Position numbers and translations under genes: made by a program. 3,140 nucleotides of DNA. Source: a virus (taxonomy: Duplodnaviria > Heunggongvirae > Uroviricota > Caudoviricetes). Shown here piece after piece: positions 1-3,140 of the stretch. Where the stretch lies: positions 1 through 3,140 of the IMG/VR virus record IMGVR_UViG_2778261511_000014. One strand, given 5' to 3'. Under the pieces are notes generated by a model. The model had not been told where the DNA came from and did no database searches. It saw nothing but the letters and a program-made list of their open reading frames with translations. Every line of letters starts with the position of its first letter. Positions within the stretch are counted from its first letter, which is position 1.

Positions 1-822
1 GCGACGCCCGTTCGTTACGATGCCCGTTCGGTCAGCACCGGTATTGCCGGACGTAGTCTGACCGCTGACCTGATTGACTGTGCAGCCGAACCGACACAGT
101 TTAACGGACGATCGCTGGTACAGATTGCGCAGGCGCTTGCTGCGCCTTTCGGCATTGAGGTGGTGAACAACGGTGCGCCGTCGGGCGTTATTCCTGATGT
201 CCAGCCTGATCACGGCGAAACGGTGATTGAGGTGATCAACAAAATACTCGGTCAGCAGCAGGCACTGACTTACGACGACCCGCACGGCAGGCTGGTGATT
301 GGCGGTATTGGCTCAACGCGGGCACATACCGCGCTGGTACTCGGGGAAAACATCCTTTCCTGCGATACGGAGAAGAGTATCCAGGAGCGATTTTCTGTTT
401 ACCAGGTGGCGGGGCAGCGTGCCGGAAACGACGATGATTTCGGTGAGGCCACCACCACCGCGCTGCGGGCCCGCACAGAGGACGCATTTATTTCCCGTTA
501 CCGTCCGATGTATATCAGGCAGACAGGGCAGGCCACGGGGGCAGGCTCTGATTTGTATGTATTCAGGCCGGTGGCGCACAAAGTGGATTTTCATATCCGC
601 GTGACGCCGGACACACCGGAAATACGGGCTGCCATCACCGCGGAGTTGCGTTCATTCCTGCTGCGTGATGGTTATCCGCAGGGAGAGCTTAAGGTATCGC
701 GTATCAGTGAAGCGATTTCCGGTGCGAACGGGGAATACAGCCATCAGTTGCTTGCTCCGGCGGACAATATCTCCATTGCAAAAAATGAACTGGCGGTTCT
801 GGGGACGATTTCATGGACGTGA
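1..822 (+). CDS. Phage baseplate assembly protein, baseplate J-like (Mu gp47 / P2 gpJ family); 3' portion only, 5' end lies upstream of the window
   Basis: The frame that starts at position 1 is open with no stop until TGA at 820-822, so the ORF-track start at 160 (a GTG) is only an internal codon and the gene enters from upstream. Composition is GC-rich, as in the neighbouring structural genes. The gene sits directly upstream of, and overlaps by 10 nt, a DUF2313/gpI-like gene, which is the conserved position of the gpJ-like baseplate wedge gene in Mu- and P2-type tail clusters. The family assignment rests on synteny and general character of the translation, not on a recognised motif. Confidence 0.6.
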
Positions 823-1397
823 CAAACGATGATTACATCCGTCTGTTGTCGGCACTGTTGCCCCCTGGTCCGGCGTGGTCAGCCAGCGATCCGGCGATTG
901 CCGGTGCGGCACCGTTATTAACCCGTGCTCATCAGCGTGCGGATGCCCTGATGCGGGAGCTGGATCCGCGCACCACCACCGAACTGATAAACCGCTGGGA
1001 GCGTCTGTGCGGCCTGCCGGATGAATGTATTCCGGCAGGGACGCAGACCCTTCGCCAGCGTCAGCAACGGCTGGATGCGAAGGTTAACCTGGCGGGTGGC
1101 ATCAATGAGGATTTTTACCTTGCGCAGCTTGCTGCCCTGGGCAGACCAGATGCCACCATCACGCGATACGACAAAAGCACGTTCACCTGCTCATCGGCCT
1201 GTACTGACGCGGTGAATGCGCCGGAATGGCGGTATTACTGGCAGATCAACATGCCAGCCGCCACCAACACCACCTGGATGACATGTGGCGATCCCTGTGA
1301 TTCCGCGCTGCGTATCTGGGGTGACACCGTTGTCGAGTGTGTGCTTAACAAACTCTGCCCGTCGCATACCTACGTAATTTTTAAATATCCGGAGTAA
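813..1397 (+). CDS. ymfQ: Phage baseplate/tail protein, DUF2313 family (YmfQ-like; P2 gpI / Mu gp48-like)
   Basis: 194-aa ORF from ATG 813 to TAA 1395-1397. The N-terminus [23 protein letters not shown] carries the Y-x-R-L-L-x-x-LLP-x-G-x-AW signature I associate with DUF2313 proteins. The length matches what I recall for E. coli e14 YmfQ. The start overlaps the stop of the upstream gene (ATGGACGTGA, 813-822), and a weak Shine-Dalgarno-like GGGGA sits at 801-805. Confidence 0.75.
1391..1394 (+). promoter_or_regulatory. Shine-Dalgarno sequence for the tail fibre gene
   Basis: GGAG lies 6 nt upstream of ATG 1401, immediately after the DUF2313 gene coding region and overlapping its stop region. 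Confidence 0.5.
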
Positions 1398-1400
1398 TCC

Positions 1401-2147
1401 ATGCATCGTATAGACACGAAAACCGCGCAGAAGGATAAGTTCGGCGCGGGTAAGAACGGTTTTACCCGTGGTAACCCCCAGACCGGCACGCCTGCCACCG
1501 ATCTGGATGATGACTACTTTGACATGTTGCAGGAAGAGCTTTGTGGCGTGGTGGAGGCATCCGGTGCCAGCCTGGAGAAGGGGCGAAACGACCAGTTGCT
1601 TACCGCGCTTCGTGCTCTGCTGTTAAGCCGCAAGAATCCGTTTGGTGATATCAAATCGGATGGCACGGTGAAAACGGCTCTCGAAAACCTTGGTTTGGGA
1701 GAAGGTGCTCCAGCTATTGGCGTTCCGTTCTTCTGGCCCTCCGCGGCAATGCCAAATACTGTAATCGACAGCTGGTCCGGTATGGTGTTTTTGAAGTTCA
1801 ACGGGGCGAAATTTTCTGCCTCTGATTACCCTGTGCTGGCGAAAGTGTTTCCTTCGCTGGTATTACCTGAAGCCCGCGGTGATTTCATTCGTATCTGGGA
1901 TGACGGGCGAGGTGCAGATGGTGGTCGCGAATTATTAAGCTGGCAGGAAGCTACAAACTTTTCTCAGTTTGCCGGGAATATAGGCGGAGGTGCGGGACAC
2001 GCAATTAACTTTCATGATGGCATCGCCGGAAATCAGCCAGGATTTTCACGATTTAATTTCACCAGTAACTCTGTGGGTGATGGTGTGAGTTTTGTTGCTG
2101 TCAGACCGCGAAATATTACATTTAACTTTCTGGTGAGGGCTAAATAA
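1401..2147 (+). CDS. Short tail fibre protein: N-terminal constant (baseplate-attachment) region fused to a C-terminal variable region with a tail-collar-like receptor-binding domain
   Basis: 248-aa ORF from ATG 1401 to TAA 2145-2147, preceded by GGAG (1391-1394) with a 6-nt spacer. Residues around 110-160 ([44 protein letters not shown]) match the pattern of the phage tail collar domain, in which a Pro/Trp-rich stretch is followed by N-G and Y-P-x-L motifs. A candidate invertase crossover site lies in-frame at codons 93-101 ([10 protein letters not shown]). The gene is followed by a tfa chaperone gene with a TAATG stop/start overlap, as in Mu S-U, P2 H-G and e14 stf-tfa. Confidence 0.8.
1678..1703. 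other. Candidate site-specific DNA inversion crossover site (Hin/Gin/Cin/Pin serine-invertase type) inside the tail fibre gene
   Basis: The sequence is CTCTCGAAAACC-TT-GGTTTGGGAGAA: two 12-bp imperfect inverted half-sites (CTCTCGAAAACC and TTCTCCCAAACC when read inward) flank a 2-bp core TT at 1690-1691. The AAACC-NN-GGTTT centre matches the crossover sites of the gix/hix/cix/pix family as I recall them. It lies about 95 codons into a tail fibre gene, the position where these systems join a constant N-terminus to alternative C-termini. Confidence 0.55.
2135..2139 (+). promoter_or_regulatory. Shine-Dalgarno sequence for tfa, embedded in the 3' end of the fibre gene
   Basis: GAGGG lies 7 nt upstream of ATG 2147. 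The fibre stop and tfa start overlap as TAATG (2145-2149), consistent with translational coupling. Confidence 0.5.
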
Positions 2148-2740
2148 TGAAACCTGTTTTTGATGAAAATGGGCTGGCTACAGTGCCGGGCGATATGCGT
2201 TGTTTTTATTATGATGCTGAAACATCTGAGTATACGGGCTGGTCTGATGAATATATTAATACTGGCGTAAGTATGCCCGCCTGTTCCACTGGTATTGACC
2301 CGGGCGAATACATTCCGGGGAAAGTGGCAGTATTTACGGGTAAGGGATGGAGCCATGAAGAAGACCACCGCAATAAGACTGTTTACTCAATCGAAAATGG
2401 CGCAGCTGTTACAGTGGATTATATCGGTGCCATCAAAGACGGTTATGTCACGATTTCAGCGTTAACGCCATACGATAAATGGGATGGTGAGAAATGGGTG
2501 ACAGACACTGAGGCACAACACAGTGCCGCAGTAGACGCGGCAGAAGCACAGCGCCAGTCACTGATTGATGCAGCAATGGCTTCCATTAGTCTGATTCAGC
2601 TGAAATTACAGGCCGGACGGAAACTGACTCAGGCAGAAACAACCCGACTTAACGCCGTGCTGGATTACATTGACGCGGTGACGGCAACAGATACCAGCAC
2701 CGCGCCGGATGTCATCTGGCCTGAACTGCCGGAGGCGTAG
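2147..2740 (+). CDS. Tail fibre assembly chaperone (Tfa; lambda Tfa / Mu U / P2 gpG family)
   Basis: 197-aa ORF from ATG 2147 to TAG 2738-2740, with GAGGG (2135-2139) 7 nt upstream. The C-terminus LNAVLDYIDAVTATDTSTAPDVIWPELPEA is the hallmark conserved C-terminal motif of Tfa chaperones (lambda Tfa ends ...[13 protein letters not shown]...). Size and position resemble e14 TfaE as far as I recall, but I cannot confirm that identity. Confidence 0.85.
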   Translation: MKPVFDENGLATVPGDMRCFYYDAETSEYTGWSDEYINTGVSMPACSTGIDPGEYIPGKVAVFTGKGWSHEEDHRNKTVYSIENGAAVTVDYIGAIKDGYVTISALTPYDKWDGEKWVTDTEAQHSAAVDAAEAQRQSLIDAAMASISLIQLKLQAGRKLTQAETTRLNAVLDYIDAVTATDTSTAPDVIWPELPEA

Positions 2741-3140
2741 GCCATTCAATATCGGGTGCTGTTGACGTATCAACACGCATCAGCAGCACACGGTATTTCT
2801 TCCATTGGGTGAGAGTTGTAGCTTCTTCATAAGTTGCGATATCAGCATCAACAGCATCCTGACGCCAGGATATTTCACTGTCAGCTTTTTCCCGTAATTG
2901 GGATTTTTTAACTTCAGCAATAGCTATTAATTCCTTTTTGGTCGGCTGAGGAATATCTATCAGTGCTGGTTTTCCATTCAGTGTTCCAATCTGTTTTCCT
3001 GGTGGAATATCCATAAATAACTTTTTATGTTCTTCCTCACTGACTATTACACCATCATCAGGCCACAGACCTGATGCCTCAAATTTTTCTTTCTCCGATA
3101 TGGGGAAAAAGCCATTTGCTTTAGCGCTCCATACGTACAT
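2712..3140 (-). CDS. Second tail fibre assembly chaperone (Tfa family), convergent with the first; the alternative (currently unexpressed-orientation) partner of an invertible fibre module
   Basis: Minus-strand ORF of 142 aa ending at TGA (complement of 2712-2714). The C-terminus [30 protein letters not shown] closely resembles the lambda Tfa C-terminus ([22 protein letters not shown]). The N-terminus [14 protein letters not shown] resembles the typical Tfa N-terminal YSAKxNxFYP motif, so the ATG at 3138-3140 may be the true start; because it sits exactly on the window edge, a longer 5' extension cannot be excluded. The region is AT-rich compared with the left half of the window. Confidence 0.8.
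   Translation of the reverse strand: [142 protein letters not shown]

Follow-up and report, generated by a model that had tools for sequence, protein, structure and literature searches.

We analysed a stretch of 3,140 nucleotides (nt) of Caudoviricetes DNA, positions 1 to 3,140 of the IMG/VR virus record IMGVR_UViG_2778261511_000014, which is called the window below. Its right-hand part carries two convergent genes for tail-fibre assembly proteins (Tfa). The plus-strand tfa gene (2147..2740) encodes a TfaE-type protein of 197 amino acids (aa) and ends in W-P-E-L-P-E-A-TAG, and the minus-strand gene (2712..3140), which matches PF02413, encodes an alternative Tfa of 142 aa and would belong to a cassette that is silent in the present orientation. 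As the original prediction, made from the letters alone, had proposed, the two 3' ends overlap antisense by 29 base pairs (bp) including both stop codons (2712..2740). The plus-strand gene stops at TAG 2738-2740 and the minus-strand gene at TGA, the complement of 2712-2714. We consider it highly probable that this overlap is the midpoint of an invertible tail-fibre (host-range) cassette of the e14 P-segment type, carried by a defective SfV/Mu-like prophage. The element is already known, the same overlap is annotated in Escherichia coli K-12, and the original prediction interpreted it correctly in part.

Both proteins are clear members of PF02413 (Caudo_TAP), for which the Pfam gathering cut-off is 22.1 bits for the whole-protein score. 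The plus-strand Tfa matched the profile with E = 1.6e-26 and 93.5 bits (residues 76-196 on profile positions 2-131 of 131), and the minus-strand Tfa, for which 617 homologues were found, with E = 7.4e-32 and 110.7 bits (residues 8-137 on profile positions 3-130 of 131). The plus-strand protein ends ...DTSTAPDVIWPELPEA, and its DTSTAPDVIWP motif is encoded at 2690..2722; the codons of the same motif in the minus-strand gene lie at 2739..2771. The original prediction had described the two as one peptide written in different codons, with peptides and codon strings quoted correctly, and the two copies are identical at 18/30 nt. This mirrored peptide is the end of the family-wide conserved Tfa C-terminal domain. 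Both proteins carry the family end D-T-x-x-x-P-x-x-W-P-x-x-P, in which W133 is nearly invariant and P134 and P137 are invariant (alignment A1), and they share 30% identity over 81 aa, only within this domain. The N-terminal domain of Tfa proteins is variable and binds the fibre, while the conserved C-terminal domain, proposed to act in fibre trimerisation and assembly, is absent from the resolved 5YVQ structure of Mu Tfa (PMC9608196). Residues 74-137 of the minus-strand Tfa could be aligned with chain 5yvq_B, that is with Mu U, which is the only member of the family in the PDB, and five residues extend past the last aligned position. Three Tfa proteins with unrelated N-terminal bodies, namely the 142-aa protein of the window, TfaP of K-12 (137 aa) and a 146-aa protein of phage vB_EcoM-606R2, end alike, and each of these long-tailed proteins pairs with a TfaE-type partner ending ...PDVIWPELPEA.

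Among the homologues, P0002, P0005, P0007, P0009, P0012, P0014, P0026 and P0027 are >90% identical over at least the N-terminal 60% and then continue in another frame (P0009, P0012 and P0014 being 119 aa long). P0009 ends ...MKKLQLSPNGRNTVCC, which is the reading of the minus-strand open reading frame (ORF) at window 2780-2920. Some genomes thus carry the silent cassette as an allele that is frameshifted or read through.

The upstream tail-fibre gene stf (1401..2147, plus strand, 248 aa) consists of a constant N-terminal part up to about 1705 and a variable C-terminal part, which would travel with the invertible segment. Within it lies the left crossover site, AAACCTTGGTTTGGGAGAAGGTGCT, at 1685..1709, which pairs with an inverted copy in the E. 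coli MJ-T locus (L001), the closest complete relative of the window (98% identical). The repeat of the e14 P segment, TTGGTTTGGGAGAAGG, sits at 1690-1705 within this site, and homology to SfV-like phages and to K-12 e14 breaks at 1704/1705, exactly at the crossover site. A constant/variable boundary in a host-range switch of the Gin/Cin/Pin type behaves in this way. In MJ-T the 25-nt sites at L001 7736-7760 and 9469-9493 are 92% complementary and 1708 nt apart, and the minus-strand tfa is followed by an alternative fibre 3' end (a short minus-strand ORF, 9193-9528), the inverted site and a recombinase gene. A single nucleotide separates this minus-strand alternative stf part from its tfa, and further on a 630-aa DUF262 gene (9779-11668) follows on the other strand. 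The same inverted pair of crossover sites is carried by K-12 e14, whose P segment is 1797 bp long, is flanked by a repeat identical to window 1690-1705, and has been shown to flip physiologically (PMC12529663). This layout, including the second fibre 3' end, recurs in phage vB_EcoM-606R2, with a gene annotated as 'DNA invertase', and in K-12 e14, with pinE. The window itself provides the context of a Gp44-like hub, baseplate J, a Mu gp48-like YmfQ, stf and two PF02413 tfa genes.

We propose that a serine invertase of the Pin/Gin/Cin family would recombine the stf site at 1685-1709 with an inverted copy outside the window; this expected right site, an inverted copy of AAACCTTGGTTTGGGAGAAGG, would fall past the window end at 3140. 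In the present orientation, the late operon would read stf with its constant part and variable part A, and then the 197-aa tfa. The cassette of this tfa is joined in frame to the constant stf part, and the plus-strand cassette would hence be the one in the expressed orientation. After inversion, the late operon would instead read stf with its constant part and variable part B, and then the tfa for the 142-aa protein. On this account, the tfa genes meet tail to tail because each is the last gene of one of two alternative cassettes.

Several points weigh against this account. The window's own share of the system is one crossover site, with neither an invertase gene nor an alternative stf 3' end, and it is from its relatives that this copy would be judged invertible. 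In MJ-T the recombinase gene next to the segment (L001 9555-9677) is reduced to 41 codons, and the segment is therefore probably frozen there. That only one strand is transcribed in each orientation is something we infer, and the cassette may, to judge by its setting in a defective prophage, have lost all expression. Relative to the constant stf part, the junction is oriented in the window in reverse of K-12 MG1655; the cassettes differ, so this is no proof that the present allele has flipped.

The geometry of the junction was found to be more rigidly conserved than annotation suggests. In K-12 MG1655, tfaP is annotated at 1208132..1208545 (+) and tfaE at 1208517..1209119 (-), a 29-bp overlap, and the same overlap occurs in E. 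coli MJ-T and in phage vB_EcoM-606R2. Junction DNA matched 2189/5426 complete E. coli genomes, and matches in phages included SfIV and pro483 (both active phages), P2-like phages and Klebsiella phages. We surveyed 122 sources, comprising 37 genomic and 80 viral loci with relatives of the minus-strand Tfa, plus the window and L001-L004. Tfa ORFs were located in these sources by a profile built on the C-terminal 75 residues, an approach that skips ORFs shorter than 50 aa, and partner fossils were picked up only by pattern or by eye. Exactly 29 bp was the overlap in 45 of the 60 convergent tfa pairs and 20, 17 or 14 bp in others, counts that carry less weight for our interpretation in that the survey was seeded from minus-strand Tfa homologues without correction for phylogeny and many of the 29-bp cases are closely related. 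The span from W codon to W codon was 28 nt in 51 of 57 measurable pairs (30 distinct sequences), with the form TGGCCN-N6-CCGG-N6-NGGCCA, and CCGG was present in all 51 pairs with this span.

In the window, this interlock (TGGCCT-GAACTG-CCGG-AGGCGT-AGGCCA, 2717..2744) runs from the W-P codons of the plus-strand gene to the antisense W-P codons of the minus-strand gene. The pattern matched once in the window and not at all in 200 shuffles. Its central CCGG (2729..2732) arises from the invariant Pro codons of W-P-x-x-P on both strands, CCG at 2729-2731 for the plus-strand gene and CCG as the complement of 2730-2732 for the minus-strand gene, with two bases in common. The length of the ORF overlap varies only by the position of the stops inside the fixed 28-nt frame. 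An insertion or deletion in the interlock would break the W-P-x-x-P of one gene or the other, and the 28-nt geometry would thus be frozen; frozen geometry would in turn explain the conservation of the junction. The interlocked form is known from Escherichia, Kluyvera, Citrobacter, Trabulsiella, Buttiauxella, Pluralibacter and Atlantibacter. Junctions built otherwise were limited to Mu, two Pectobacterium loci of the survey, and P1, which was checked separately.

Most exceptions to the 28-nt span are damaged copies of the same junction (L019, L029, L025, L084, L041 and L079). L019 and L029, from Buttiauxella and Cedecea, retain the 28-nt frame with one W codon changed to TAG or TGA, and that tfa stops before W-P; it looks as if one cassette is decaying while the other constrains the DNA. 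The partner at the junction is degenerate in L025 and L084, and L041 has a 3-nt deletion there. L079, an IMG/VR contig, has an insertion of about 380 bp that leaves the convergent tfa genes 362 bp apart, and on either side of the gap the 28-nt junction is present, in full or in half (TGGCCTACGCCTCCGGCTTAACGGGC... and ...TGGCCTACACTTCCGGCTTAACGGGCCA). This looks like insertion into one junction, or recombination between two.

The codons facing each other across the overlap set both stops. They read TGG CCT GAA CTG CCG GAG GCG TAG on the plus strand and TGG CCT ACG CCT CCG GCA GTT CAG GCC AGA TGA on the minus strand, and the plus-strand TAG is antisense to CTA within the partner's CCT-ACG (P-T). 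At the equivalent place the minus-strand gene meets CAG, not a stop, because its partner has GAA (E) after W-P, and as a consequence it runs on for three codons (Q-A-R). The Q-A-R-stop segment (2712..2723, minus strand) lies past the usual family end and antisense to the (V)I-W-P codons of the partner, with GCC-AGA opposite TGG and ATC and TGA opposite GTC-A (V-I). Every 29-bp pair combined an 8-residue tail starting with T or I, that is with an A-initial codon, and a 5-residue tail starting with E, V, A, P, L or G. The A-initial T or I codon after W-P creates the TAG of the partner. In the 8-residue tails among 120 homologues, residue 7 was almost always A (GCC, opposite the partner's TGG-C), and residue 6 was Q, E, P, L or R, varying because the wobble base of the partner's Pro codon and the base next to it vary.

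We further compared tails outside the interlock. Unpaired tfa genes had tails of 4 aa (n = 36), 5 aa (n = 12), 6 aa (n = 6), 7 aa (n = 2) or 8 aa (n = 4). Three of the 8-aa cases (L054, L008 and L071) keep a fossil GGCCA partner, and L107 shows none. Tails of 8 residues were nearly confined to interlocked pairs and fossils of such pairs. When distinct C-termini were counted, tails of at least 7 aa made up 21/60 in interlocked pairs versus 8/64 elsewhere (Fisher's p 0.005, phylogeny ignored). The original prediction had suggested that the last eight residues of the minus-strand protein (TPPAVQAR) could be an extension created by read-through into the other gene. This applies to QAR only. TPPAV is native, as the family ends 4-5 residues past W-P; the Pfam profile ends at W-P-x-x-P-E and Mu U at WPQKPE. 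Homologues carrying the same tail, named beforehand as evidence that it is native, do exist (for example K-12 TfaP with TPPAVQAR), yet this comparison is confounded, as their tails are encoded by the very same DNA, that of the overlapping junction. We infer that the QAR extension is a neutral by-product. QAR is kept wherever the junction occurs, and this is compatible with a function too, which counts in the opposite direction.

A mirrored protein motif without a DNA-level inverted repeat had also been described. This is correct for the long arms, which differ, and incorrect for the centre, where the 28-nt quasi-palindrome at 2717-2744 exists and can fold. Of the two causes offered for the codon differences, different evolutionary origins agreed with our results. 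The two tfa genes are separate mosaic modules, as indicated by protein identity (30%) in the conserved C-terminal domain only and by DNA homology to K-12 that is confined to an island at 2468..2774 matching the tfaE/tfaP junction of e14 (blastn, 93.8%). From the sequences, old divergence of the two modules with saturated synonymous sites would suffice for the 18/30 identity and the codon differences. A recent inverted duplication was rejected as the origin, since the arm symmetry stops at the 28-nt unit in 43/43 distinct junctions. A single ancient origin of the junction is possible, though unsupported. Between Mu U and U', no long DNA inverted repeats were found besides the gix sites.

The second cause was selection against a spacer-free DNA inverted repeat, in which codon differences would be kept because a palindrome is unstable or recombines. 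This explanation leans on the behaviour of long palindromes without a spacer, which are unstable in E. coli, and it is consistent with the finding that 0/43 distinct junctions are alike beyond the 28-nt unit, the mean arm identity being 0.68 inside and then 0.38, 0.36 and 0.27 outward. Codon choice does not bear it out. At the 39 aligned identical residues that allow a choice of codon, the two window genes used the same codon 21 times versus 16.3 expected under independent choice, and the corresponding numbers were 17 versus 15.6 for K-12 and 46 versus 41 for Mu U/U'. The same codon is thus slightly commoner than predicted in all three, and with no deficit in codon sharing we rejected avoidance of a repeat as the main account. 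Moreover, at about 30% protein identity, saturation accounts for the DNA divergence without added selection, and recombination between the C-terminal-domain repeats would presumably just swap equivalent gene ends. Hence, we regard this explanation as unlikely.

The original prediction noted, correctly, that the overlap leaves no room for a terminator between the convergent genes: they overlap by 29 bp with no spacer, whereas Mu and P1 have a 28-bp hairpin spacer at this place. Predicted folding of 41 nt gave -14.0 and -12.8 kcal/mol on the two strands (z = -1.4 and -1.5), and folding of 66 nt of the plus strand gave -29.3 kcal/mol (z = -2.4). There is no U-run after the stem on either strand, and a terminator consensus scan of L001 6800-10000 returned five sites, none of them at the junction (L001 8763-8795). 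With modest energies and z-scores and no U-run, a terminator or structured RNA was rejected as the main account.

A related explanation holds that the quasi-palindrome at 2717-2744 is a selected structure, either a bidirectional terminator or a hairpin that stabilises messenger RNA, and that the geometry is conserved for this reason. The region does fold on both strands, with the z-score of -2.4 for 66 nt, the corresponding position in Mu and P1 is occupied by a strong hairpin, and in a few junctions the third base of the Pro codon covaries with the base opposite (TGGCCG...CGGCCA in L104, TGGCCA...TGGCCA in L027). However, every invariant base of the stem is already dictated by the W, P and P codons, which do not vary in unpaired genes either, and mismatches occur at the same covarying position elsewhere, for example in L080 and L089. 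Together with the missing U-run, the lack of a scanned terminator at the L001 junction and 41-nt z-scores of only -1.4 and -1.5, these findings make a selected hairpin quite improbable.

Terminator-like hairpins with a T-run were found within 80 nt of 21/59 distinct unpaired tfa genes versus 4/93 paired ones. No sigma-70-like promoter site was detected on either strand of L001 6800-10000 (3.2 kb), versus 4.3 +/- 2.1 in dinucleotide shuffles, and the minus-strand cassette lacks its own stf 5' end. Convergent transcription of the two tfa genes therefore probably never occurs, each tfa being read only when inversion puts it behind the late operon, and the lack of a terminator would in all likelihood do no harm.

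We also considered that the interlock may be a selected design. Without the terminator that Mu and P1 keep, late transcripts would continue antisense across the silent cassette and reach the invertase gene, located downstream on the same strand in relatives; the shared 3' ends would bind one cassette to the other, and the 70-bp junction would serve as a patch of homology. If this were true, antisense read-through would suppress any stray expression from the cassette that is off, or link the expression of the invertase to late transcription, and neither cassette could be deleted or exchanged without damage to the other. The conserved 70-bp junction would then move fibre and chaperone modules among Mu-like, P2-like and lambdoid phages, leaving fossils such as those in HK97 and mEp213. 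We give this proposal little chance of being correct.

The remainder of the window bears on the state of the prophage. Its first ORF (1-822, plus strand) joins a gp44-like baseplate hub (PF22255) to the C-terminal end of baseplate J, and the next (813-1397, plus strand), identified by ORF and domain search, encodes the Mu gp48-like YmfQ. The stf product has a weak match to the Collar domain, and the stf stop overlaps the tfa ATG by 1 nt (TAATG, 2145-2149), an arrangement that usually accompanies translational coupling. Over its full length the window is up to 98.2% identical to SfV/Mu-like E. coli prophages, but the match is split in two by the absence of about 2.05 kb of baseplate genes. Relative to MJ-T, the missing ~2,051 bp comprise the remainder of the hub gene, all of gpV and gp46 and the greater part of gp47, and 17 nt (GGCCACGGGGGCAGGCT) are common to both flanks at the deletion junction (window 531-547). 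This junction had no match in IMG/VR and was not contiguous in any complete E. coli genome. As a consequence of the gap in its baseplate genes, the prophage is defective.

This state raises the alternative that the minus-strand tfa is a decaying relic whose overlap and long tail are meaningless, or that one of the stops is a sequencing or assembly error. In addition to the defective prophage, frameshifted or cut-down versions of the gene in some genomes (P0009, P0012 and P0014) and the W codon turned to a stop in one partner of L019 and L029 are in line with decay. In contrast, the minus-strand ORF is intact with a full-length Pfam match, versions with the same stop and 95-99% identity occur in many genomes and viral contigs, and the K-12 P segment flips physiologically (PMC12529663). 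A sequencing error in 2712-2740 is out, the same stops occurring in many independent genomes; the original prediction had listed an altered stop as a way in which it could fail, and both stops are identical in K-12, MJ-T, vB_EcoM-606R2 and HK97. Hence, we consider a relic or an artefact highly improbable.

What is added here is the fixed interlock geometry, the stop codon logic, the contrast with Mu and P1, and the fossils described below. No description of the overlap or its geometry was found in the searchable literature, though the papers of the 1980s-90s on the P, G, C and Min segments lay outside it; prior description of the interlock geometry, the stop codon logic, the Mu/P1 contrast and the fossils is possible, and novelty is not claimed. 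The importance of the window itself is small, as it shows the tfaP/tfaE junction of K-12 e14, which belongs to a textbook host-range switch, in a further prophage. The 28-nt W-P-x-x-P interlock is nevertheless a compact signature for P-type invertible fibre cassettes and for their fossils in phages that do not invert, with which the horizontal movement of fibre modules can be traced. It is also a natural example of an antisense overlap that sets the C-terminal residues and the stop position of a protein. For annotators, and for engineers of tail fibres and tailocins, it means that altering one tfa 3' end edits the other.

The closest known system is K-12 e14 (stfP-tfaP / tfaE-stfE, pinE). It resembles the window in jayE/baseplate J, ymfQ and the constant stf part (95.7% identity), in an identical crossover repeat, and in a tail-to-tail junction that is 93.8% identical with the same 29-bp overlap. 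The C-terminal half of the plus-strand tfa (window 2468-2740) is 93.8% identical to tfaE, and TfaE ends ...PDVIWPELPEA. In contrast, the variable stf part and both tfa N-terminal domains of e14 are unrelated to those of the window, and TfaP (137 aa) shares homology with the 142-aa Tfa only over the last ~20 codons. The window also differs from e14 in its upstream deletion, which produced the fusion of gp44 and baseplate J.

The Mu G segment (S-U / U'-S', gin) and the P1 C segment (S-U / U'-S', cin) follow the same logic as that proposed for the window, with a crossover site in the fibre gene, two alternative cassettes of fibre end and chaperone set tail to tail and an adjacent serine invertase. 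Their U and U' proteins belong to the PF02413 family and end W-P-Q-K-P-E and F-P-E-Q-P-E. Unlike the tfa genes of the window, U and U' do not overlap. Between them lie 28 bp of spacer that form a GC-rich hairpin (z = -3.5 and -4.1), with a U-run in one direction. From W to W they span 70 nt versus 28 nt in the window, and both tails have 4 residues. This contrast raises a question about how transcripts are terminated inside invertible segments.

Phage lambda Tfa ends WPAVPVME and has no fossil. Fossils were found in HK97 and mEp213, which retain the 28-nt interlock, yet lack an inversion system and carry only one tfa; of its partner, no more than 10-30 codons are left on the opposite strand. 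HK97 Tfa (gp29), which is of the TfaE type, has the same C-terminus and the same 70 nt of junction DNA (97%). Past its tfa, on the antisense strand of L122 at 1252-1340, a fossil of the tail-to-tail partner extends for ~25-30 codons before a stop. mEp213 (L123, ~1170-1250) is the mirror case. Its tfa ends WPTPPEVQAR, with an 8-residue tail, and the other strand reads ...CAPDVIWPELPEA-stop (APDVIWPELPEA-stop), about 12 codons of a TfaE-type partner. The fossils in these two phages suggest that the junction travels with fibre modules into non-inverting phages, where the 28-nt signature marks their history.

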